Positions 203 to 57,690 of a stretch of DNA of 64,000 nucleotides are shown here, one piece after another. A program made the translations under genes and the position numbers. The stretch is from the NCBI GenBank assembly GCA_951406725.2, contig OX597818.1, positions 90,458,001 through 90,522,000 of the forward strand, written 5' to 3'. Source of the DNA: Octopus vulgaris. Taxonomy: Eukaryota. The notes beneath the pieces are model-generated. The model was given only the letters and a program-made list of their open reading frames with translations. It made no database searches and was not told where the DNA came from. Position 1 is the stretch's first letter. The number at the start of each line of letters is the position of its first letter.

Positions 203-502
203 ATTATAAATTTCTTAAACAATCTCTTTCCTAAGTCAGCGCCTTCCAAGACATCCCCGGATTTTGTCACACCCTAGATATTGCCGCCTCAGGCGGTCGC
301 CTAGGGGTAGACCCGGACTTGTGTGTGTGCGTGTGTGTGTGCGCGCGTGCGCTGGTAATATATGTGTGTGCCTGAATGTGAGCACCCACGTATACGCACA
401 AATATACCTACACAAATGCACACACACACACACAAGTAAATACATATGTACATAAGTACATATATGTATGAATGTGTGCGTGTGTGCGTGTGTATATATA
501 TA

Positions 503-742
<240 letters not shown>

Positions 743-6184: not shown

Positions 6185-6222
<38 letters not shown>

Positions 6223-6306
6223 GGTATGTAGAAAAATACAACATGGACAAGAACGTATAGCTCTTAGAAGACGACACAATAAACACGGACAGGACATTCG
6301 AAACCC

Positions 6307-6369
6307 TCAGTCTTCAGTCAAGAACCGGATCATCGTAGTAATTTCGGCTGATTAATCTTGAGATTACTA
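6307..6369 (-). ncRNA. Hammerhead-like motif with non-nested strand order (family A, copy 1)
   Basis: Minus strand: UAGUAA-UC-UCAAGA uuaa UCAGcc-GAAA-UUACUA cgaugauccggu UCUUGA-CUGAAGA-CUGA. Stem III 7 bp, stem I 6 bp, stem II 4 bp with a CC bulge. Confidence 0.7.
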
Positions 6370-7163
6370 GATCACGGCCAGCCCTCCAAGAAAAACCAAG
6401 CAACAAGCATTAGAAAAACTAAGCTGGAAGCGTAGATTTCCTGGAAGAAGGATCGAATGCATACGAACACCAGGACAGCAAAAGGGACAGATATAAAAAA
6501 ACAAAAAACAATAATGGAATACAGAAACATGAAATACAGAAGCATTAACGGTGAAAACAACAGTGTCTTACGACTGATAACAAGCAAACAAATTTTTTCT
6601 CTGGCGCAATGGAAAAAGCCTTTATAGTGGCGGACGAAAACAGCGATGTTAACAAGACAAGGGTCAGAAGCTGAAAGGCAGATTTCGGCCAACAGTCACG
6701 TGACAGAGAAGAGGGAAAAGAAAAGAAAGAGAAGCAAAGGAAGAGAGAGAGAGAGGAGAGAGAGAGAGGAGGGACAAACGCAACAAAGAGAGAGAAGAGA
6801 GAGAAAGAAGGAATCAGAGAGGAGAAGGGATGGGTGTCGAAGAATGACCTGTGAGTGCAGAGCGAGACAAAGAAATAGGAGGGTAGTGGAAGACTAGACC
6901 AAAGAATCAGAGGAAAGAGAAGAGAAAAAGAGGATGAGTAGAGAGAAAAGAGAGAGAGGGGGACAGATCAAGTAAAAATGAGAGAGAGAGAGAGACAAAC
7001 AGAGAGTCGTACCAATTATTAAGAATATGTGCTCACATAAATGTTAAGGGGGGTACGGGGCGCCTGGAATATATGTTAAGGTATGTAGAAAAATACAACA
7101 TGGACAAGAACGTATAACTCTTAGAAGACGACACAATAAACACGGACAGGACATTCGAAACCC

Positions 7164-7226
7164 TCAGTCTTCAGTCAAGAACCGGATCATCGTAGTAATT
7201 TCGGCTGATTAATCTTGAGATTACTA
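7164..7226 (-). ncRNA. Non-nested hammerhead-like motif (family A, copy 2)
   Basis: Same sequence as 6307-6369. Confidence 0.7.
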
Positions 7227-8022
7227 GATCACGGCCAGCCCTCCAAGAAAAACCAAGCAACAAGCATTAGAAAAACTAAGCTGGAAGCGTAGATTTCCTG
7301 GAAGAAGGATCGAATGCATACGAACACCAGGACAGCAAAAGGGACAGATATAAAAAAACAAAAAACAATAATGGAATACAGAAACATGAAATACAGAAGC
7401 ATTAACGGTGAAAACAACAGTGTCTTACGACTGATAACAAGCAAACAAATTTTTTCTCTGGCGCAATGGAAAAAGCCTTTATAGTGGCGGACGAAAACAG
7501 CGATGTTAACAAGACGAGGGTCAGAAGCTGAAAGGCAGATTTCGGCCAACAGTCACGTGACAGAGAAGAGGGAAAAGAAAAGAAAGGGAAGCAAAGGGAA
7601 GAGAGAGAGAGAGGAGAGAGAGAGAGGAGGGACAAACGCAACAAAGAGAGAGAAGAGAGAGAAAGAAGGAATCAGAGAGGAGAAGGGATGGGTGTCGAAG
7701 AATGACCTGTGAGTGCAGAGCGAGACAAAGAAATAGGAGGGTAGTGGAAGACTAGACCAAAGAATCAGAGGAAAGAGAAGAGAAAAAGAGGATGAGTAGA
7801 GAGAAAAGAGAGAGAGAGGGGGACAGATCAAGTAAAAATGAGAGAGAGAGAGAGACAAACAGAGAGTCGTACCAATTATTAAGAATATGTGCTCACATAA
7901 ATGTTAAGGGGGTACGGGGCGCCTGGAATATATGTTAAGGTATGTAGAAAAATACAACATGGACAAGAACGTATAACTCTTAGAAGACGACACAATAAAC
8001 ACGGACAGGACATTCGAAACCC

Positions 8023-8085
8023 TCAGTCTTCAGTCAAGAACCGGATCATCGTAGTAATTTCGGCTGATTAATCTTGAGATTACTA
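8023..8085 (-). ncRNA. Non-nested hammerhead-like motif (family A, copy 3)
   Basis: Same sequence as 6307-6369. Confidence 0.7.
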
Positions 8086-8197
8086 GATCACGGCCAGCCC
8101 TCCAAGAAAAACCAAGCAACAAGCATTAGAAAAACTAAGCTGGAAGCGTAGATTTCCTGGAAGAAGGATCGAATGCATACGAACACCATACACCAAA

Positions 8198-8231
<34 letters not shown>

Positions 8232-10169: not shown

Positions 10170-10279
10170 TATAGCCTTTTTCTAACTACTGGTTCAGTTC
10201 CTCTGCGTAGCAACTTGGCTAAGTGTCGTCAACAACAGCCTCTGTCCGATTACTGTCTTGTAAATTTAGCATTCATAGT

Positions 10280-10600
10280 AATTTTTCTATCGTCTTGACT
10301 TACCTGTCCTGACCGTTTGTTCTTACTGTCTTGTTCTCACTGTCCTGTTCTTGTTACCACTTTCACCCTCCGCATAAAATCCCAAATTTTATTTAATTTG
10401 CTTTGCGGGAAGAACTGTTACAACGATCTCGCGTATTGTCCTTACCTTTGAAAAGTTGAGTAGATGAAACAGGGACAACTGATGAAGAGGAATATTCTTT
10501 ATGTTGCATGTCTAGTTTCTCTGTTTGTTTTTTTCGTTGTTCGAAAAAAAGTTCCTTTTCTATGTTTTTTTTTATTCCTGTACCCATATATGCATGTGTA
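10280..10600 (+). mobile_element. HHR family B element
   Basis: Similar by eye to the reverse complement of 41556-41925 and to 35700-35955 (CCCTCC..AAATTTTATT upstream, GAGTAGATG linker, CCTGTACCCATATATGCA tail running into TA repeats). Confidence 0.75.
10428..10490 (+). ncRNA. Non-nested hammerhead-like motif (family B)
   Basis: CUCGCG-UA-UUGUCCUU a CCUUU-GAAA-AGUUGAG uagaugaaac AGGGACAA-CUGAUGA-AGAGG. Stem I 8 bp, stem II 5 bp, stem III partly decayed. Confidence 0.7.
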
Positions 10601-10701
10601 TATATACATATATATGTAGGTATATACATATATGTATATATGCATATATTTATATATTATTTATATTATCTTATATTATTTTATATTATATTATATTATA
10701 T

Positions 10702-11163: not shown

Positions 11164-11284
11164 CACGTATATAAATTATCTGTATAAAAACTTCGTTGGA
11201 AATAGATGTGTCGCGTTCAATTAAATAACAAATAGTAAATAATGTATAATATATAATATATATACGCACCCACATGCACACACA

Positions 11285-11600
11285 TGCATAAATGGGAGCA
11301 GGACATCACAGACTGTGCAAATAACATGAAATACGTAAACGACGAGGGAAAAAAATGGAAAAGCGGACAATTAAGCATAGAAAAAGCACCTTTCATTAGT
11401 TGTCGGTTTTTTATCTACTCCTGATTTGAATGTTCGAAATGAGGAGCAGATAGACAGCCGACAACTGATGAAGGGTCCTTTCTTTGTGTTTACTTGTCCT
11501 GTTTTTCATTTTTTACTCGTTGCTTACGTATTTAAATCGTTTGTTTACGTATTTCATGTTATTTGCACCGTTGGTGATGTCCTGTATCCATATATGCATG
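11285..11600. mobile_element. Inverted pair of family B 3' halves
   Basis: 11300-11420 is a diverged reverse complement of 11445-11585. The right arm keeps GAAA..GAG.AGAT...GACAA CTGATGA AGGG but lacks the NUH strand. Confidence 0.7.
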
Positions 11601-11622
11601 TGTACATATATATATATATATG

Positions 11623-11673
<51 letters not shown>

Positions 11674-28479: not shown

Positions 28480-30690
28480 CAGCAAATGGTTTTTAGGTCA
28501 TTTATATGTAGTTATGGACAGACTACACCTCCTCAAGGTCTTGTGTAAGATGTTCTCGGGTCCATCAAAGAAGATGCACTTGGAAAATCTGGGGTCAGAC
28601 ATGCACGCTACATGTTCACTCCAACGCAACTGGAATTTGCTCAGGAAAGCATACACGCTTTGTACGTTAGTCCTCTCTCGAGCACGACTATATGGGGAAT
28701 CATCTTGCTATCTGATGTTAAAACGACTACCGTCATAACCATATATGGTGTCTCATAGGTGAATGTATCATGAAACATTGCGCAAAGCATCAAACTGAAA
28801 AGTGTGAGTACTAGAACAAAACCATGTCTCACCCCGTTAGGAACAACGGAAGGCGCGGAGAATTCTCGATCATTTATGACACGAGCTTGCATGCCATCCT
28901 AAAATTTATGCATCATGTTAATGAATTTGCCTGGGCAACCAAATTTCTTCATTAATTCTCCTAAAGGCCGATTCTGCTTAAAAAGCCCTGATCAGGTCGA
29001 TGAATAAGGTGTAGAGGTCTCGTTTTTGATCCTGACGTTTTTCATGAGGCTGCCTTGTAGCAAAGATGATGTCCGTGGCTCCCACAGGTTTTTCTAAAAC
29101 CACACTGACCTTCATGAAGAAGCCCAGACTTAAGACGTTGTTTGAGCCGATTGAGCATGATCCCTGCCAGGATTTTGCTGTGATGGTCAGCAGTGATATG
29201 TTCCCATGGTTCTTTCACTCTACAATGATTCCTTTTATTTTATAAAGGTGTACAATTCTGGTAGAATTAGACCCTGTTCCCACATTTCCGTTCGCCATGT
29301 CTATAGACCTAAGTAGGAATTTCCTCAGAGGCAGGGTTGAGCATTTCATTGCCAATTGAATTTCACCAAGTGTAATGAAACACTCAATCAATAGTTAGTG
29401 GGCAGCTGATGTAGACGATTTATTGCCTCTGCGTTTATATGAGCGGGACAGTTTAAGAGAGAATCAGTGTTCTGCTCATCACTTTCGTATCAACGATTTC
29501 TTTATCAATAAAATAAGGCCATTCGCGCTGAGCAAGGGGGCTGTTCTTGCTTTTTGAGGTCTATATATAGAATGAATTGTTGTATAAATGCCTTTAATGT
29601 ATTTTATCTCAGCTTCATGATATATTTCCCTAGCTCGTTGCTGAAATCGCTCATTTTCCAAACTGAGAAGTTTTTCTGTAGTAGGTGACAACTCCTTTAT
29701 GCTGATTCATTTCCTTGTGTATTGTTTTCAAGAAACTTTTGCTGTAATTGCTCCTTCCTGCTTAACAATTCTGATATTTCATCGTCATTCTCATCAAACT
29801 ATTCTTTGTGTTTGTGTTCTATTTTCCTTTAGACTTCGAGGGATGATGCATAAACAGTAGTGTGGAATTTCATCCATTTTCCCTCAATGTTATTCACTGT
29901 CTCTAATGAGTGTGTCTATTTATAATCCAGCATAGCACACGTATTCTTGGATCTGAGTTTGTTGAGGTTCAGAGAAGTTTCTATTACTTTTTCATGAGGT
30001 CGTCTTCTCATCTTCAATTTGAGTTTACACTAAGCTTTCATTAGCCGTTGGTCAGTCTATTAATCAGCGCCATATATACACTTGGCAAACACATGGTGTA
30101 CCGACCTTTCTGACAACTAATGATGAAGTCAGTCAAGTGTCAGTGTTTAGACCGGAGGTGCATCCAAGATGTGTGGTTCCCAAGAAGCAGTTTAAGCGTG
30201 GCGTTTTTCAGGAGCAACGGATTCACAGTGCAGAACTGGAGCAAAAATCCATTACTGGAATTGCGAGGGCCAAATTTATTTGTTCTAATTCTGGCATTGA
30301 TGCCTTCCAGTAATATGAGGTTTTCTTTTTGTGGAATGAGAGAAATTAGAGATGAAAACTTTTTGCAGAGTTTCATTTTCAATGCTTGGTCATTAGACGT
30401 CGTCGGGGAAAAGCAGCTCACAAGATTGAGAAAATTATTTCCTTTCGTTGCCAGTCTCAGGATCATACGCCGATAATTTATGGCTTTTGGAAGGACGGTG
30501 ACATTTTGCTAGGCTGTTTTTCACTGAAAAAGCTACACCAGCTTCGTGCTCCTTCTCCTTCTCCTTCTTTGACTGGAGTTTTCCGGACTCTGGAAGTCTT
30601 GTTTCGGTGAGAGTAGCTATGTTAATGTTGTCCCTCGATAATTCTTTACCAACAAGGACTGAGTTTCTTGCAAGCCTTCCTAGTTCGTTG
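28480..30690 (-). mobile_element. RTE/BovB-like LINE, decayed APE and RT
   Basis: ORF fragments LVGKELSR.NI.IA.L.ETRL, SWMHLRSKH (TWMHPRSKH-like), and NGVR.G.VL..TLFS. Confidence 0.88.
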
Positions 30691-30699
30691 TTATATATA

Positions 30700-30870
30700 G
30701 GTGCAGGCGTGGCTGTGTGGCTATGTGGTAAGAAGCTTGCTTCCCGACCACATGGTTCCGTGTTCAGTCCCACTGCCTGGCACCTTGGGCAGGTTTCTTC
30801 TACTATAGCCTCGGGCCAACCAAAACCTTGTAAGTGAATTTAGTTGACGGAAACTGAAAGAAACCCGCAT
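30700..30870 (+). mobile_element. SINE S1, 5' part
   Basis: GGTGCAGGCGTGGCTGTGTG...CACCTTGGGCAGG. Confidence 0.85.
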
Positions 30871-31953: not shown

Positions 31954-33548
31954 GCACATTCACAAACACAAATATACACGTACACACAAATAGAGGCTAA
32001 GATAATCACGCACAAGTATATATACAAAGAGCTGTACGAATGTCACTAATTTTCTTCTCATCAAGCGAGTCGTTTGTAAATAAAGATAAAGTCCATTTTT
32101 AAATGACACCTTTTGTTATTTGTAATAAAATATTTAAGTGAATCAGGTGCAGAAAGTTTGTTAATGACAGAGATGAGAAGAGGGTCAAATTACATTAATT
32201 ATTTCATACAGAATATTCGGATCTCTCACAATCTGTAGCATGAGTCCTAATCAACAAGTTACAAGTGTAGCTACATGGTAATAAGTTTGCTTTCCCACCA
32301 CATAGTTCCAGGTTCTGCCACACTGCTTTACACACTGGCCTAGACTATTTTACTTTAGCCTCGAGCTGACGAAAGACTTGTGAGTAATCTTGAACCGAAA
32401 CATACACACGCACACATACACACATACACTCACACACAGACTCACACACACACACACACACACACATACATACATACATACATACATACATACATACATA
32501 CATACATACATACATACATACATACATGATGGCTGCCCTCTCGTTATCGAGTCTGGCTATTGCACGAAGCTTAGCTGTTATTGGTACTGTGATCGAATGT
32601 GACTTTTATTTGCTTTTTAAGGCTACACCCAGACATTCAGTTGAGACTCACAGCACCATCGACAATCATGAACAATGTTGTTATCGTGCAATGCCTGTGC
32701 AGGAAGATTTTTTTTAAAGTGAGGAAAGGCTGTGCACTGAGTCAATCCCACTCACTAAGCAACAGCAGCCATAATCCGAAAAGAAGAACAAGTCAACATC
32801 ATCTCTAACCACTGAGCCGCAGGTTTTATGTCGGAGTTATCCCAGTTACCTGAGTTACCTTCTAGAAGGATGCCCTAACAAAGGCTAGGAGTCCTTCACT
32901 TCCAATGGTTTAACCGCGCGATCGGGTATTCAGTCCGATTATTTCTATGTCCCCGCGCATTATACAGCCTTAAGCCTTAAGAAGAAAAAAATTACACATT
33001 TATTGGATGGCCATTGACTCTCAAGAGTTCCTCCGCCCTTTCACGGGTTTCGTTTTTCATCCCGCAGGGTGTCCAATAAACACCCTCCTCACCAAGCAAG
33101 CTTGGTGGGGTTGCCGTTTTAGTCGCCGACGGCCCGACTATGCAACAGGTTGTAATGGGTTACATGTTACCAGTAGCACTCGAAAGTGACCTGACATAAT
33201 TACGTTACAAGTGTAGCTACATGGTAATAAGTTTGCTTCCCCACCACATGGTTCCAGGTTCTGCCACACTGCTTGACACACTGGCCTAGACTCTTTTACT
33301 TTAGCTCCGAGCTGACAAAAGACTTGTGAGTAATCTTGAACCGAAACATACACACGCACACATACACACACACACACTTACACACATACATACCACTTGC
33401 TAGAGACAGAGCCATCGCTCCAAAACCACCAATTACTCATTATTAAAATATATAAGTTCGTTTAGAATGTCGAGGGAACATTCAATAGTAAAGAACACAC
33501 ACGGCGTAATGTGATGAATATTGCAGAAATATATGTTATAGTGTTATG

Positions 33549-33609
33549 TTCAGCTGATGAGCTTAAAGTCTGATTTTTCATACAGAAAGCGAAATCAATT
33601 GATCCTGAA
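33549..33609 (+). ncRNA. Canonical type I hammerhead ribozyme
   Basis: UUCAG CUGAUGA GCUU..UCUG..CAGA AAGC GAAA UCAAUUGA UC CUGAA. Perfect core, 5-bp stem I, palindromic stem III, AUC site (cut after 33604), followed by AATAAA. Confidence 0.85.
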
Positions 33610-33833
33610 ATAAAGCACTTCCTTACTTTTGTATTCCACGCAAGGTAGCCTGTTTCTGTTATATTTATTGCCTTGGCCGTGTGTATTTTAATAATGAGTA
33701 ATAGATCTGGGAGCGATAGCGATAGCTCTGATTATAGCAAGTGGTATCTAAATACCCTGTTGAATTTGAATTTAGTTTCTATTTTACCTGTAAAGGTTAA
33801 ACTTGCTAGTCACTTTATTATTATTATTATTAC

Positions 33834-35506: not shown

Positions 35507-35787
35507 CCCATCTTTCTGTAGTTGCTCATACGTAACTATTGTCCATCTTTCTTTTCCTGCACAGACGTTCAAAGGACTGGACGTGTTTTTTTCTATCTTT
35601 TCTCTTTCCAAAGAAAGTATTTCTCCCAGCGTTCTCAATTTTCCTCTCGTTCTGGTCTAATGACCCTCCATGTTTGTTTTCGTTCTGTTTCCTTTTATGC
35701 GTCCACTGTCCTGTTTTTGTTCCCAACTTTGACCCTCCATAAATCCTAAATTTTATTTTAGAATCTATGGGAGCAGCTGTGTTTGAA

Positions 35788-35850
35788 GACATATTGTCTT
35801 TGAATGCTCGAAATACGGAGTAGATGCACAGCCGACAACTGATGAAAGAT
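35788..35850 (+). ncRNA. Non-nested hammerhead-like motif (family B), decayed
   Basis: A-UA-UUGUC ... GAAA U.. GAGUAGAUG.. GACAA-CUGAUGA. Stem I perfect, stems II and III eroded. Confidence 0.5.
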
Positions 35851-35952
35851 CCTCTCTCTTTATTTACTTGTCCTATTTTCCATTTTTTTCTCTCGTTGTT
35901 TACGTATTTCATGTTGCTTCAACCGTTGGTAACGTCCTGTACCCATATATGC

Positions 35953-35985
<33 letters not shown>

Positions 35986-36543: not shown

Positions 36544-36828
36544 GTACAATTACTACTCCAAGGACATGTATTACATTAGTTTGGGAAAAAGACGAATTAT
36601 GTTGGGGATGCAAATCCTCATAGTCGTGTACAACAGAGCGAAGCACCAAAACAAAATCGAAGCGTCCATCCCGTTTTTCACTCATGTAGAGTGAAAAACG
36701 GGATGGACGCTTCGATTTTGTTTTGGTGCTTCGCTCTGTTGTACACGACTATGAGGATTTGCATCCCCAACATAATTCGTCTTTTTCCCAAACTAATGTA
36801 ATACATGTCCTTGGAGTAGTAATTGTAC

Positions 36829-36916
36829 GCGGCTGAAGAAGGCTATTGACATACAAATTACATCAATTATACATTGATATAAACCGCCTAATAAAAGCCA
36901 GAAACATATGTACCGC
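36829..36916 (+). ncRNA. Type I hammerhead with long stem II
   Basis: GCGG CUGAAGA a GGCU...AGCC a GAAA CAUAUG UA CCGC. Confidence 0.78.
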
Positions 36917-36945
36917 TAAATCCTTTGCAACATGTTTTTATTTTG

Positions 36946-41484: not shown

Positions 41485-41555
<71 letters not shown>

Positions 41556-41559
<4 letters not shown>

Positions 41560-41925
41560 AATAAAATAGAACATATGCATATATATAAACATATATGTAC
41601 GTACCTACCTCTACATGTACATATACACGCATATATGTGTACAGGACACCAAAAAGACGTCGAACACATAGAGAGACGAAAAACATAGACACAAACCAAG
41701 GAACAGGACAAGCAAAAAAGAAAAAAGAGATACAGGACAATAAGCACAACGAAAAATCCCCTTCTTCAGTCGCTAAGGTTTCATCTACTCTACGTTTCGA
41801 AGGATAAAAGCGAGACGTATACTTCGAAGAAACTTCCTTCCTGCGAAAAGCAAATCAATTAAAATTCTGAGATCTTTTCGCAGAGGGGTAAAAAATGGTA
41901 AAAAAAGCAAGACGGTAACGACAAT
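41556..41925 (-). mobile_element. HHR family B element
   Basis: Similar to 10280-10600, embedded in (TA)n, and flanked by a direct repeat of about 90 bp. Confidence 0.75.
41756..41819 (-). ncRNA. Non-nested hammerhead-like motif (family B), best preserved
   Basis: Minus strand: UACG-UC-UCGCU uuu AUCCUUC-GAAA-CGUA gaguagaugaaaccuu AGCGA-CUGAAGA-AGGGGAU. GUC site, stems I and III perfect, stem II 6 bp. Confidence 0.78.
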
Positions 41926-42007
41926 ATATATATACACACACACGTCACACACGAATCTTTCTCCCCTCTCTCTATGTATACCTATATCTACGTCTATCTC
42001 TCTCTCT

Positions 42008-42078
<71 letters not shown>

Positions 42079-43295
42079 TCCATTTCATGCCCTTAATCAG
42101 GTCTGTAATTTTCTCCAAAAACTTCTTAGAGCATAGTTCCCTTCAATGTATAGGTATGTTTTTCTTAGAATAATCGATGTAATAGGCGTCCATATTGGAT
42201 TCTTCCGAGGGGTAGAGTCCGGCGATTTTCCAAAATAAGCTGTATTAGCCCTTAGGGAAGAATAGCGGTGTACGGGAGGTAACTTATTGATAAAAATGGT
42301 AAGACAACAAAAGAAAGATATAGTATTTTTCCGATGGCCGGATAACTGAAGAGATGGCGGCGTGGATTTCCACCTCGGCATCCGAAACTCGGAGTTTTAT
42401 CATGGCTACCGAATAATTGTCACATATTACATTTACAGATATATATATATTATATGTATGTATATGAATTAGAAATGGAAACCAAAACAATACATAATTA
42501 AATAATTTAATCATTAAAAGATAACTTCAATTCAATTTTATTACTTTATATAAACAAATGATACATGTCATAAATTACAGTTGTTTCGACTCCATTAATA
42601 TAAACAAATTTTTCAAGAATAATAAAATATCGTTTAAATATAATGAGATTTCATCAGAGCGAGGGACCAACAAAACTCCTTGTAGCACTAAAGATGACTG
42701 ACGGCAAGGATTATGGCAGCATTCACCAACTTAAATAAGGAGACCGTCCAGAAGAATTGCAGCAGATTCCGAAATCGTCTGAAGGCCGTGGTTGAAGCCA
42801 ATGTCGATTTTATTGAATAAATTTATTCTTTAATATTTCAAGATATTTTCATGTAATTTTGGTAAATATATATGTTAAAATGAGATGCGCAACGTAAACT
42901 ACACACTAGGTGGGGATCGAAACACAACTATTTTGAAGGAACCTTAATTCCACGCTATGCGCAGATTTTCAAATAGTATTTCAGATAAAATATATGAAAA
43001 TTAGGGTTATGTGACAGCCCCGTGCCCCTCGCATACACTTCCACAATTAAATACCCTAATTTTCTATATTAGTCATATCTCTAACACATATATACTAAAT
43101 TGCTTATGGATATGATGCATTTAATCATATTTCACTGTAGAAACCATGTTTAAAACATCTGATGAGTAAAGATAGCAAAAACATTGAGATATAAGACAAT
43201 TGGTAGGTAGGTACCTCTCCAACATGGCAAAATTACAACTTTTCAGTGTCTGTTAAATGATTTTCTTTTTAGAAAATGTATACATTTGTTGAATG

Positions 43296-44017: not shown

Positions 44018-45307
44018 CGAGGGGTGTTCAATAAGTAATGCCCCTGACCCACTTCCCATAGCAGTAGAACAACGAAACTTGGCACAGTTATTAGTCTTTT
44101 TCTACATAGGAACCACCCAGAGTTACGCATTTCTCCCATTGTTTGATGCAGCTCTGGAGACCGTTTTTGTAGAAGACCTTAGCTTGGTCCTCCAACCTGA
44201 ACGTGACTTCAGAAATAAAGGCTGCATCATCTGGGAAACGCTTTCCTTTCAAAAACAACTTCCTGACTGGGAAGAGGTGAAAATCAGAGGGTGCAAGGTC
44301 AGGAAAGTAGGGGGATGGGGCACGAGTTCATAGCCATACGCCTGTGCTTCTGATCTGGCGACAAGCGAGTTGTGGACCGGGGCGTTGTCCTGCAGGAGGA
44401 GGATGCCTTTGCTGATCTTGCCCCGCCTCTTGATTTTGATAACTTCTCTTAATTTCCTCAAAAGTGAAGCATAATAAGCTCCTGTAATTGTGGTACCCTT
44501 TGCCAGGAAATCTGTCATCACTACTCCGTCCTGGTCCCAGAAGACTGTGAGCATGACCTTGCCAGCGGAGGGCTGCACCCTTGCCTTCTTTGGAGGGGGT
44601 GAGTCACGGTGCTTCCACTGCATTGACTGGGCTTTGGTCTCTGGATCATCGTGATGGACCCAGGTTTCATACTGTGTAATCAGTCTTTTGAAAAAGTTTG
44701 ACTCATCTTCTTGGCACATCTCCAAATTCACCTTCGAGCACTCGACGCGTTCTTGCTTCTGGAAAGGTGTGAGCAACCTGGGAATCCATCTGGCAGACAC
44801 CTTTTGCATATGCAAATGGTCATGAATGATAGTTTCCACAGACCCGGTACTAATCTTGACCTCATGGGCTATTTGGCGAATAATTATGCGTCGATCCTCC
44901 AAAATGGCAGCCTCAACTTGACGGACAGATGCCTCATCAATGGCAGAAGAGGCGACCAGATCTGGGAGCTGTTTCCACAGAGTTCCGACCATGTTTGAAT
45001 TCACGATGCCAGCGTTTTACAAGGTCATATGATGGGGCATCATCACCATAAGTTACTTTCATTTCATCAAAAGTCTCCCGTGGTGTGCGTCCTTTCAAAT
45101 ACAAAAACTGGATCACTGCTCGACACTCAACAGGCTCCATTTCACACTTGACTCGGTTCAAACACCTGTAAATCAGAAGCCACAATTAATTCAGAGCTGT
45201 AATTTGCCACTTACTCTATAGAGATATAAATGATTGCACATGCAAAATTTCAGCTAGATCAAACAACTGCAAGTGGGTCAGAGGCATTACTTATTGAACG
45301 TCCCTCG
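44018..45307 (-). mobile_element. Full-length mariner element (about 1290 bp)
   Basis: TIR CGAGGG..GTTCAATAAGTAATGCC.CTGACCCACTT at both ends, with a TA target duplication. Confidence 0.95.
44091..45140 (-). pseudogene. Mariner transposase pseudogene
   Basis: MEPVECRAVIQFL HTH, WIPRLL (WVPHEL-like), (D>Y)ETWVHH, QDNAPVH, frameshifted PPYSPDL-like motif. Frameshifts near 44950 and 44315; first catalytic Asp lost. Confidence 0.93.
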
Positions 45308-52989: not shown

Positions 52990-53445
52990 GAAAAAGGACA
53001 GCAAAAATCAAGGTGGAACGAGTATCTTAGGCCATTTACAGTATTCAATTAGAGTAAGGTAATTTAGAAGTAATTAAAGTCTTATAACAGTATCTGGGAT
53101 ATCCTAAGTGATGGGTCCACATCTCCATATATTGCGTATTCCGTCATCAGAGACAAGGTGCCTATGTAGGCAAATTCCAGACAGAGAATTCACAGTGTAT
53201 AAAAGAATAAGATAATATCTACTGTTTTATTCTTTTATACATTGTGAATTCTATCGGGAACTTGCTCTACATACGCACCTTGTCTCTGATGACGGAATAC
53301 CCAGTGTATGGAGGTGCGGACCCATCACCTAGAATATACCAGAAACAACTGCAAGACATTAATTACTTCTCATTCACCTTACTCTAATTAAATACTCCAA
53401 ATGACCTGAAATACTCGTTCTACCGTGGTTTTGTTGTCCATTTAA
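52990..53445. repeat. Diverged inverted repeat (arms about 220 bp), each arm with a decayed type I HHR
   Basis: Centre near 53218. Right arm GUCU CUGAUGA..GAAA CAACUG CA AGAC (53282-53357); left arm mirror at 53079-53154 has GAUA instead of GAAA. Confidence 0.8.
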
Positions 53446-54285: not shown

Positions 54286-54320
<35 letters not shown>

Positions 54321-54404
54321 GGTATGTAGAAAAATACAACATGGACAAGAACGTATAACTCTTAGAAGACGATACAATAAACACGGACAGGACATTCGAA
54401 ACCC

Positions 54405-54467
54405 TCAGTCTTCAGTCAAGAACCGGATCATCGTAGTAATTTCGGCTGATTAATCTTGAGATTACTA
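54405..54467 (-). ncRNA. Non-nested hammerhead-like motif (family A, copy 4)
   Basis: Same sequence as 6307-6369. Confidence 0.7.
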
Positions 54468-55269
54468 GATCACGGCCAGCCCTCCAAGAAAAACTAAGCA
54501 ACGAGCATTAGAAAAACTAAGCTGGAAGCGTAGATTTCCTGGAAGAAGGATCGAATGCATACGAACACCAGGACAGCAAAAGGGACAGATATAAAAAAAA
54601 AAAAAAAACAATAATGGAATACAGAAACATGAAATACAGAAGCATTAACGGTGAAAACAACAAGTGTCTTACGACTGATAACAAGCAAACAAATTTTTTC
54701 TCTGGCGCATTGGAAGGAGCCTTTATAGCTGCGGACGAAAAACAACGATGTTAACGTGACGATGGTCAGAAGCTGAAAGGCAGATTTCAGCCAGCAGTCA
54801 CGTGACAGAGAAGAGAGAAAAGAAAAGAAAGAGAAGCAAAGGAAGAGAGAGAGAGAGAGGAGGGACAAACGCAACAAAGAGAGAGAAGAGAGAGAAAGAA
54901 GGAATCAGAGAGGAGAAGGGATGGGTGTCGAAGATTGACCTGTGAGTGCAGAGCGAGACAAAGAAATAGGAGGGTAGTGGAAGATTAGACCAAAGAATCA
55001 GAGGAAAGAGAAGAGAAAAAGAGGATGAGTAGAGAGAAAAGAGAGGAGAGAGAAGAGAGAGAGAAGGGGACAGATCAAGTAAAAATGAGAGAGAGAGAGA
55101 GACAAACAGAGAGTCGTACCAATTATTAAGAATATGTGCTCACATTAATGTTAAGAGGGTACGGGGCGCCTGGAATATATGTTAAGGTATGTAGAAAAAT
55201 ACAACATGGACAAGAACGTATAACTCTTAGAAGACGATACAATAAACACGGACAGGACATTCGAAACCC

Positions 55270-55332
55270 TCAGTCTTCAGTCAAGAACCGGATCATCGTA
55301 GTAATTTCGGCTGATTAATCTTGAGATTACTA
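55270..55332 (-). ncRNA. Non-nested hammerhead-like motif (family A, copy 5)
   Basis: Same sequence as 6307-6369. Confidence 0.7.
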
Positions 55333-55656
55333 GATCACGGCCAGCCCTCCAAGAAAAACTAAGCAACGAGCATTAGAAAAACTAAGCTGGAAGCGTAGAT
55401 TTCCTGGAAGAAGGATCGAATGCATACGAACACCAGGATAGCAAAAGGGACAGATATAAAAAAAAAAAAAAAACAATAATGGAATACAGAAACATAAACT
55501 TGTTAACAGATGAGATCCAGAGATTCTCAGTATAGAAAGCAGTTAGTGGCACTCAAATGATTCAAACAAGAGAAAGCAAATATATATTTCTTTCACTATC
55601 CAACCCCAGTGATCATCAATATATGTATATGAGTATATAATAATAATAATAATAAC

Positions 55657-55779: not shown

Positions 55780-57690
55780 TGTATTGTTCAACCTAAGGAT
55801 AACAAACGGAAACTACGTAATTTAAACTTGATACACAAGATGTAGGAAAAACAACACGGACTATTTAACATCAGAAATGAACGGACCAGTACCCTACGAA
55901 AATGATGACCATGAAAATTAAGGGCCGGACGTTATTCCTCATGTCCCGCAAATAAAATCAAAACAGTATATAAATGGACACGTGAGGAATATATTTCAAA
56001 TCTACACGCTCATTTTACAGCAGTGCTCTACCCAAAGAACAAAAATTCAACAACAGCAAAAAGAAGAAGGGTTTAAGTATGGCCTGGATCGATTACCGAA
56101 AGGCTTTTGATAGTATTCCCCAAACATGGATCCTAGAAAAACTAGCCATGAAGAAACAAGGTGGCATCAATAATCATAAAATATATAAAACATTTCATGA
56201 ATAAATGGCAGACAGTGCTACAGCTCCAGACAAAAGAGGGATTCATAAAAGCCAAAGCCATCCCCATTAAAAGAGGTATATTCCAGGGAGACACGCGCTC
56301 TCTCCTCCTTTTCTGCTTGGCACTGACATCTTTATCTGACATGCTAAACAGAACTGGATGTGGATACAACTGTTACGGCAAAACAATCAGCCATCTCTTG
56401 CATGTGGATGATATAAAACTGTACGCTACAAATGATAAACAGCTGAAAACATTATTACAGACAGTACATAGATTTATCAGAGAAATATACATGAAATTTG
56501 GCTTATTGGCTTAGAAAAATGTGCCAAAGCAATCTTGAAAAACGGAAACTAGATAAAGCATATAAAATAAGAGAATTAGACCAAAGCTAGACATACAAAT
56601 ACTTAGGAGCACAAGATCAAACCTTCCCGCCAGAAATCAACAGATCACGTAATAAAAAGAAATGCAAGTAACTAGATACGATACAACACACACAAATGAA
56701 ACAGGTTAAAAAAGGAATGCTAACGACGAGTCAGATTAATATTGAAAATAGAGTTCAATATGGAAAACAAGATAATAAGTATCAAAACTCTAGCCGTCCC
56801 AGTTACAAGTTGCAGCTACTATATTCTTAACTGGACTCTAAATGAGGTAATCAAAATAGACAGGAAAACAAGAAAAATAATGACATGATTTAGAATGCAC
56901 CACTCAAAATCTGACATAGAACAGTTATATATACAATGTATCGAAGGTGGCAGAAGCCTTATACAGCTAGAAAACTATTACAAAATAACCACCATAGGAC
57001 TACAGAAATCCTACTTCAGAAGTAAGGAAAACTGATACAAATAAGATGAAAAAAACACAAAACAAACACACTGTTTTCAGTCTTTAAGGAAGCTGACAAA
57101 TACAAAAAAGAAATCATAGTACCTAACAACTAGGGAAAAAAAAGAAACAAAATATGATGTAAAACAATTAAAATTAAAATTAAAACTGGAACAGCAACAG
57201 ATCATGACAAAACGATGGTAAGAAAAGCCCCTACATGGCAAATATTCGGTTAAGTTAAACAGAAATGAAATAGACAAGGCAAAATCCCAACAATGGCTGG
57301 GAAGCTCAGGACTCAAAGCAGAGACTAAAGGTTTTTGAAATGCAGCACAAGATCAAGTCTTTAGGCTTTGTGCCTTCAGTAGAAAGGATTCTACCTGAAA
57401 TCACCAAATCACGTAATGAAAAGAAATACAAGTAACTCCAGTATATGTGGTGATTGAGAAGAAACAATAAATCACATTGTCTCTGACTGCCCAGTCCTGC
57501 TAAAAAGGAATATATTCACAGGCACGGCAGAGTTGGGACCTATATACACTGGAAATTATGCCAAACACAAGTGAATAACAACAGAGAAAAGATGGTTTAG
57601 GCACTCGACAGCAAAGGTCAAAGAACATGAAAAACCAACCATACTCTGGGATATGCCAGTACACACAGATAGAGAAACATAAACAATCTT
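55780..57690 (+). mobile_element. R4/Dong-clade LINE, decayed RT, CCHC region and RLE start
   Basis: MAWIDYRKAFDSIP, IKRGIFQGD.., ISHLL.VDDIKLYA, S..WL.S.GL..ET.G, AAQDQ, ETINHIVS.CPVLA, ILWDMP. Confidence 0.88.

Follow-up and report, generated by a model that had tools for sequence, protein, structure and literature searches.

The window, by which we mean the whole 64-kb stretch of Octopus vulgaris DNA (64,000 nucleotides) that was analyzed, contains copies of non-coding retroelements that carry predicted ribozymes of one common wiring. Long gene-like open reading frames were looked for in the window and none was found. The features that concern us here, with helices and cleavage sites as predicted from sequence, are the following.

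10268–10674 (+): 5′-truncated copy of subfamily B1, a non-coding retroelement, with an (AT)n tract at its end (blastn against a longer B1 copy, 80% identity)
10409–10413 (+): stem II 5′ strand, G10.1 at 10409, partner 10445–10449 (from the upstream-pairing analysis)
10415–10422 (+): P4 5′ strand, partner 10465–10472, the "conserved linker" (8/8 pairs in the B1 majority)
10430–10435 (+): stem III 3′ strand and NUH triplet (GUA), predicted cut between 10435 and 10436
10436–10443 (+): stem I 3′ strand
10445–10457 (+): block G, comprising stem II 3′ strand, GAAA (10450–10453), and stem III 5′ strand
10458–10472 (+): linker of the sequence-only reading, of which 10465–10472 is the P4 3′ strand
10473–10485 (+): stem I 5′ strand and CUGAUGA core (10479–10485); the ribozyme proper stops at A9
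10486–10503 (+): downstream segment that resembles, less strongly, the 5′ strands of stem II and P4; taken as the stem II partner in the sequence-only reading
11181–11654 (no single strand): inverted pair of B3-type copies, joined within the ribozyme near 11426
35540–35985 (+): decayed B3 copy with damaged stem III and P4; G10.1 at 35771, H17 at 35793, GAAA at 35810, CUGAUGA at 35839
41551–41940 (−): young B2 copy with an intact ribozyme; G10.1 at 41840, cut after 41814, GAAA at 41798, CUGAAGA at 41769–41763
6212–8198 (−): family A tandem array with units of 857–859 nt and three intact ribozymes of the same wiring (6311–6383, 7168–7240, 8027–8099)
54310–55498 (−): second family A array with two intact ribozymes (54409–54481, 55274–55346)
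502–641 (+): short family A copy that starts about 4 nt past the predicted cut, preceded by an (AT)n flank

The four-helix model has six matches in the window compared with none in 30 shuffles. The Rfam hammerhead models have no match at the gathering threshold in the 64-kb window, and Rfam gave no match at E ≤ 5 in 10 loci. Canonical type I hammerheads are also present in the window, at 33,540–33,625 (+), 42,335–42,410 (+), and 36,825–36,930 (+)/36,440–36,545 (−); one has a palindromic stem III, one has an extra C before GAAA together with GUU, and one set is an inverted pair as typically found in terminal repeats of Penelope-like elements. A further inverted pair with CUGAUGA, at 53,080–53,150 (−) and 53,286–53,350 (+), resembles a type I-like fit in locus L158. 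The segments 44,249–45,016 (+), 30,114–30,839, and 56,152–56,514 appear to be transposase-like and reverse-transcriptase-like fragments, the transposase-like one presumably of the mariner type.

The sequence-only reading of the 10.4 kb copy had proposed a hammerhead with its blocks in the order A-C-B and with compensatory changes in stems I and II relative to the copies at 41.8 and 35.8 kb. The strings that it quoted are present at all three places: stem I is UUGUCCUU/AGGGACAA at 10.4 kb (10436–10443/10471–10478), UCGCU/AGCGA at 41.8 kb, and UUGUC/GACAA at 35.8 kb, and the NUH triplet does vary, with GUA, GUC, and AUA across the 10.4, 41.8, and 35.8 kb copies. The block order is that of the type-SGC, non-cyclically ordered hammerhead, in which the triplet is followed by GAAA and then by CUGANGA. 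The linker core GAGTAGATG is identical at the three sites; its AAAC tail, said to be conserved with it, is missing at 35.8 kb. Judged against 30 copies collected by similarity, the 10.4 kb copy carries private changes: three substitutions disrupt stem III (now UA, GA, CG, GU, CU), and the stem II that had been read as compensatory, CCUUU/AGAGG, differs by two private substitutions from the CCUUC/AGGGG of its own subfamily majority. Stem II as we place it has one broken pair in this copy and its G10.1–C11.1 pair has decayed to G-U, and P4 has one A-A mismatch, a helix that is wholly intact in 22 of the 30 B1 copies. The copies at 10.4 and 35.8 kb both fail the ribozyme descriptors, leaving that at 41.8 kb as the intact one of the three. 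We consider the copy at 10,428 decayed and its ribozyme probably inactive, and we regard the site, with considerable confidence, as one decayed copy among the many of an abundant animal repeat that bears a rewired hammerhead.

Given that the 10.4 kb copy is probably dead, covariation has to be judged between subfamilies. Across eight representatives of the B subfamilies, four of the five stem I pairs have changed on both sides, as the sequence-only reading had anticipated, and stem III, absent from that reading, covaries as well (4/5 pairs on both sides). The stem II register drawn there fares differently, with no double change among the eight representatives and intact pairing in 0 of 30 B3 copies, so that pairing across subfamilies holds for stem I but fails for stem II in that register. 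The representatives were picked for having stems I and III, which makes their percentage of pairing circular; the B1 and B3 majorities are free of this circularity. The core nucleotides C3U4G5A6N7G8A9, G12A13A14A15.1, and U16.1-H17 are present in the majority of B1 and B3 copies collected by BLAST, with N7 and H17 varying only in ways that hammerheads permit, and 10 of 30 B1 and 15 of 30 B3 copies are fully intact. A core-blind search by helix geometry recovered exact CUGANGA, GAAA, and NUH in 26 of 37 hits compared with 0 of 18 in the control, and five further hits are true cores shifted by one base. Among B1 genomic copies the core has changed at 0.040 per non-CpG site against a background of 0.036, and among B3 copies at a lower rate (0.017 vs 0.046). 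Because the B1 core decays at the background rate, the earlier proposal that the structure was selected appears correct for the source elements but not for the 10.4 kb copy itself.

The pattern YCGAAA-N20-25-CTGAWGA has 22,236 matches in the 2.8-Gb genome and its reversed control has 1,033, and we estimate that the genome contains about 21,000 such predicted cores. They sit in tandem non-coding units and in the 3′ UTRs of autonomous retrotransposons that encode a restriction-like endonuclease (RLE). The first 100 places of the pattern yielded 90 distinct hits, which comprise family A, the B subfamilies, and rarer families; at first look, B1 (the 10.4 kb copy) had 3,932 candidates, B3 (35.8 kb) 3,422, and B2 (41.8 kb) 1,672, of which 40 were scored for each. 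Units of families A and B are about 850–880 nt long. Family C (1,384 candidates) is the 3′ UTR of an RLE-endonuclease non-LTR retrotransposon, and family F is a young, autonomous element with a unit of 3,737–3,738 bp, a 1175-aa ORF with an RVT_1 match, a perfect predicted ribozyme about 77 nt past the stop codon, partial tandems, and ATAT ends. One retrotransposon protein encountered here has its nearest named relative in Argonauta hians. A B2 stretch occurs in 20 of the 24 sequencing runs listed (10 studies, 7 organism labels; runs guessed to be RNA), four of which were examined as assembled contigs. Further families with the same wiring are represented by loci L233, L237, L179, L258, and L398–L401; L258 and L398–L401 belong to an older, decayed RLE family. 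Locus L387:1–6201 contains a head-to-head pair of family F with the same flank at both ends, either an inverted duplication or an assembly artifact.

An alignment of the RLE C-terminus led to 80 metagenome loci at 30–52% identity, in which we searched for relatives of the ribozyme with a descriptor limited to the core and stems I and III. The S-G-C motif is present in 50 of the 80 loci, in sense and 50–450 nt after the ORF, and these represent 42 distinct sequences; where at least 200 nt were available, the proportion is 47 of 67. The antisense strands, upstream coding sequences, and shuffled controls of the 80 loci gave no motif, and no block order other than S-G-C was found in the 80 loci. 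In a quick protein tree the motif lies on both sides, and 9 of 12 loci without it form one branch. The carrier has a single ORF with a reverse transcriptase (RT) and a C-terminal RLE, its profile matches R2 protein structures (E ~2e-4), and from the C-terminal signature we take these carriers to be HERO-like; no relative of the RLE protein was found in viral contigs. The GC content of the metagenome loci ranges from 36 to 56%, a span that makes several hosts likely. Most of the mutual information in these diverse sequences lies in stems I and III, and beyond the descriptor minimum these are 80–95% paired compared with 41–71% expected. At the cut site, 12 of the 42 metagenome ribozymes have GUU, which is also common in B5 subfamilies. 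GUU is unusual for hammerheads and cleaves poorly, and by lowering cleavage it may allow uncut or circular RNA to persist.

Several of these loci warrant mention in their own right. The loci L324, L325, L331, L332, L339, L344, L369, L370, and L375, which make up the single branch mentioned above, have no ribozyme, and the 3′ UTRs of L325, L332, and L344 contain recurring inverted TAATCCC/GGGATTA motifs that may form another RNA structure. RLE elements lie head to tail in L316/L318, L315, L317, L321, L363, and L376, and in L316/L318 the neighboring units of one contig have different ribozyme sequences. In 6 of 19 loci with enough flank a long ORF starts 94–253 nt after A9, which could be an effect of assembly.

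Neither an upstream stem II nor P4 was used for selecting the metagenome sequences, and both are found in them. At least four Watson-Crick pairs counted from C11.1 can be formed with an upstream strand in 34 of the 42 distinct ribozymes (partner-permuted control: mean 10.0, maximum 18 of 42 in 1,000), whereas a downstream partner exists in 3 of 42. The G10.1–C11.1 pair is formed with the upstream strand in 39 of 42 metagenome ribozymes and in all eight B representatives, position 10.1 lies mostly 20–26 nt before H17, and mutual information at 10.2–10.5 is 1.1–1.6 bits in the 36 sequences in which stem II could be located. All eight B representatives and copies of families A, C, D, and E have 4–6 upstream Watson-Crick pairs; pairing is weaker in three old copies, which reach 3 pairs, and one copy (L179) has none. 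The helices differ in sequence: B1 has GAAGG/CCUUC for stem II and CUGUUUCA/UGAAACAG for P4, B3 has GAGCA/UGCUC and CUGUCU/AGACAG, and family A has GGCUG/CAGCC for stem II, the upstream pairing being present also in A-type subfamilies that lack any downstream partner. The 5′ strand of stem II is therefore to be placed about 20 nt upstream of the start given in the sequence-only reading.

P4 begins directly after the stem II 5′ strand and ends 0–3 nt before the stem I 5′ strand. Its energy in the metagenome relatives is −11.5 kcal/mol compared with −6.7 for permuted partners, with 0 of 200 permutations as good, and it is 82.5% paired in the B representatives in an alignment that is one column out in some rows. 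In the four-helix model, 14 of 20 pairs change on both sides among the eight B representatives (0 of 500 shuffles). The covariation shows that the linker forms a helix, as predicted here, with a strand upstream of the cut, and likewise that A9 is not joined to G10.1 in the predicted fold. The linker had been described as a possible source of tertiary contacts; its 3′ part instead pairs with 10415–10422 in a covarying Watson-Crick helix. The idea that it matters for bringing stems I and II together is supported, as P4 would join their distal ends and so provide the distal stem I–stem II interaction typical of hammerheads.

We initially favored a downstream stem II in an extra-A register, and dropped it on the evidence of upstream pairing in relatives and subfamilies. 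That arrangement corresponds to the published type-SGC fold, in which stem II uses the purines that follow CUGANGA and the partner of the linker lies downstream. In the B subfamilies a 4-bp G10.1–C11.1 helix can indeed be drawn with an extra A after A9 (100% paired, two G-U), the helix between the linker and the downstream strand has two double changes in B3, and an extra nucleotide at this place is normal in PLE (Penelope-like element) and CChMVd hammerheads. We nonetheless judge this fold improbable for the octopus elements: the downstream pairing provides 2–3 Watson-Crick pairs in B subfamilies compared with 4–6 upstream, the downstream helix is missing in several A-type subfamilies and in family C, and across 40 diverse relatives the downstream pairing is not sequence-specific (p 0.6–0.8), with 3 of 42 against 34 of 42 upstream. 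No stem II strand follows A9 within 0–2 nt on this evidence; the linker/downstream helix was likewise rejected as not sequence-specific in the 40 relatives, and a closing helix of the strands that flank the A9/G10.1 break was unsupported (p 0.047 and 0.14). Still less credible is a fold of the blocks in trans or between tandem units into a canonical nested dimer hammerhead, with the single-unit pseudoknot inactive. Units are tandem, PLE and amphibian hammerheads act as dimers, and programs restricted to nested folds miss the single-unit fold (nested minimum-free-energy folding of four window copies gave z ~0, a value uninformative for pseudoknots). However, the spacing of the four helices is tightly kept within about 80 nt (10.1 mostly at −20 to −26), stem III, which is long, is not a palindrome, P4 can be understood only as a helix of a single copy, and solitary copies are the rule.

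The segment after A9 (10,486–10,503, with homologues in A and B) has a weak resemblance to the stem II and P4 strands that lie upstream. It pairs in B and A, covaries in B3 with two double changes, and was not seen in the metagenome relatives; displacement of the 5′ product once cleavage has occurred, or a switch function, would be possible roles.

Read from 5′ to 3′, the single-unit ribozyme runs from the stem II 5′ strand through the P4 5′ strand and the stem III 3′ strand with NUH to the stem I 3′ strand, and from there through the stem II 3′ strand, GAAA, and the stem III 5′ strand to the P4 3′ strand and the stem I 5′ strand with CUGANGA. All canonical core nucleotides and G10.1–C11.1 are kept, the chain is, on the covariation, open between A9 and G10.1, and P4 would clamp the distal ends of stems I and II. 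On comparative grounds this order, II5′-P4-S-G-P4-CUGANGA, is the type-SGC permutation opened between A9 and G10.1. A break at this junction is plausible by analogy, as an additional nucleotide there is tolerated by natural hammerheads (PMC3705267 and PMC4209133); no tested precedent for a break was found, the nearest being this tolerance of one added nucleotide.

The 5′ ends of genomic copies bear on cleavage. Using intact references, and leaving out the 10 of 90 hits without a family reference, we find that 28 of 80 copies start within −2 to +16 of the predicted scissile bond, about 18 nt, and 11 within −3 to −100. Of the 28, 25 start at +2 to +16 and the other 3, lengthened by AT microhomology, at about +1; the remaining 41 of the 80 copies run further. 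This pile-up near the cut has a binomial probability of 4e-12. In a hand count of 20 AT-flanked family A loci, 6 start exactly at +1, 13 further 3′, and 1 upstream within the 31 nt scanned. The hand count of family B covered 96 distinct loci, of which 4 were dropped as non-family, and among the remaining 92 there are 2 starts at +1, 51 at +2 to +14, 33 at +15 to +43, and 3 clear and 3 ambiguous upstream starts in the 21 nt scanned. In family F (n = 9), 2 copies start at +1, 4 further 3′, and 3 upstream of the cut. We infer that starts at or just past the scissile bond are a footprint of cleavage, and it is very probable from this pattern that the ribozyme cuts transcripts of tandem units after NUH.

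Another explanation of the same ends is that a selected structure with little or no cleavage, such as a protein-binding or RT-pausing element, stalls the RT. The split core, U17 in 12 of 42 ribozymes, and the many starts within helices would suit such an element, as would family B, whose copies mostly begin at +4 to +13 rather than +1 and in 33 of 92 cases within the structure; RT stalling too predicts few upstream ends once the partner strands have been copied. Stalling could thus explain the starts inside helices and the low upstream rate, and it may contribute to copy starts, but it does not explain the exact +1 starts in A (6/20) and F (2/9) or the 15 of 28 near-site starts at +7 or earlier, which lie past the last helix strand that the RT must unwind. 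In addition, every catalytic-core position was recovered by the core-blind search, and N7 and H17 vary as hammerheads allow. We give a non-cleaving element little weight.

Copies end at a fixed point about 115–250 nt 3′ of the cut (A ~150, B ~250, C 115, F ~125), mostly in (AT)n, family C ending in another motif. Reverse transcription would be primed at (AT)n targets from this fixed point, and a cut linear RNA would give short copies starting at or just after +1; a linear monomer running from cut to cut templates only this short piece, in agreement with the abundance of short copies. Seamlessly joined partial tandems are found in A, B2, and F, and any copy exceeding one unit would have to come from multimers that escaped cutting or from circularized monomers. 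The two ends of a monomer would be held together by stems II, III, and P4, and we think it reasonably likely that the monomer circularizes. Units are nearly identical within arrays and differ between them (family A: 0.3 vs 5.5 differences in 10 and 161 pairs), a homogeneity that fits rolling-circle copying of a monomer circle, as PMC7229834 and 10.64898/2026.07.22.740005 propose for retrozymes; uncut transcripts of homogeneous source arrays would fit too. In a circle, the rest of the element (0.75–3.6 kb) would in effect be an insertion at the A9/G10.1 junction, and priming 3′ of the cut would force full-length copies from circles and give LTR-like partial tandems.

The ribozyme motif has its home in the 3′ UTR of RLE-endonuclease elements, and we lean toward these as the most likely mobilizers of the non-coding A/B units. 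The alternative mobilizer is a Penelope-like element. Among 30 B1 copies, 5 have clear 3′ and 2 have inverted 5′ Penelope-type tails, the 3′ ends of A and B have no evident sequence in common with families C or F, and the partial tandems, inverted 5′ piece, tail of 30–40 bp, and microsatellite target seen here are PLE traits as described by Craig et al. On the RLE side stand the common ribozyme, ATAT ends, and tandems, and no GIY-YIG PLE with the same ribozyme or terminal repeat was found among 30 loci, mostly of one group that is presumably Neptune-like. Loci L121–L150 represent a Penelope-like family, which we take to be Neptune-like, with many open frames of 781 aa and a Zn-finger linker. 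We put at about even the broader hypothesis that a whole branch of RLE elements and their non-coding riders replicate via unit-length circles cut by a split-core hammerhead.

If correct, this would be a seventh natural hammerhead wiring, outside the scheme of six permutations, given that a block assumed to be indivisible is split. Non-circularly permuted ribozymes, represented until now by a few hundred sequences from metatranscriptomes, would number tens of thousands in a single animal genome and would extend to a broad retrotransposon clade. Rfam models and descriptors that require stem II miss this type, so that animal ribozyme counts are underestimated. The R2-related group would gain a 3′ ribozyme and possibly a circular RNA cycle, and retrozymes would have a second origin beside Penelope elements. 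A split-core hammerhead permutation was not found in the openly accessible literature searched, nor is one described in the available parts of PMC13725137, PMC10162972, and PMC6155905; the literature search returned "type-SGC" in Eckert et al. (2023) only, nothing on octopus hammerheads, and no report of HERO together with a hammerhead.

We place the predicted ribozyme within the hammerhead class, with a new wiring and a new host group. Its closest counterparts are the type-SGC ribozymes (HRIMA-1 and variants; Eckert et al. 2023, PMC10085705), with which it shares the S-G-C order, all core nucleotides, a short stem I–stem II link, and a fourth helix that joins the far sides of stems I and II, P4 being the counterpart of their helix "I". 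In the type-SGC ribozymes the stem II arm and fourth-helix strand lie 3′ of CUGANGA, whereas here they lie 5′ of block S; an unbroken block C, followed past the stem II arm by a helix "I" strand at the 3′ end, is absent here, and Eckert et al. assume block C to be uninterrupted. The type-SGC ribozymes come from metatranscriptome contigs, the same paper reporting no SGC RNA in genomes of known organisms, whereas the present ones come from an animal genome and retrotransposon DNA.

The carriers share with the R2 group of RLE elements (HERO clade) a single ORF with RT and restriction-like endonuclease and the processing of a co-transcript by a self-cleaving RNA, here a predicted ribozyme. R2 has a 5′ HDV-like ribozyme; here a hammerhead lies 3′ of the ORF, 115–125 nt before the 3′ end at which genomic copies stop. 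Microsatellites are the targets of some HERO families (PMC4640811). With non-LTR retrozymes of animals (Cervera & de la Peña 2020, PMC7229834; Li et al. 2026, 10.64898/2026.07.22.740005) the A/B elements have in common that they are non-coding, that each tandem unit bears one hammerhead, and that they occur as dispersed monomers and in short arrays. The hammerheads of those retrozymes are of type I, and the retrozymes are tied to Penelope-like elements, whereas the rewired ribozyme here is not of type I and is shared with RLE elements. A classical retrozyme also occurs in this genome, in locus L155:2,300–4,560, where 359-nt units carry canonical type I hammerheads, five on one strand and two inverted. 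Finally, the PLE pLTR hammerheads (Cervera & de la Peña 2014, PMC4209133; Craig et al. 2021) share with the present elements a ribozyme in terminal repeats, partial tandems, inverted 5′ pieces, a tail of about 35 nt, and microsatellite targets; PLE ribozymes are of type I or minimal type I and often dimeric, and unlike PLEs the carriers described here encode an RT with an RLE rather than a GIY-YIG endonuclease.
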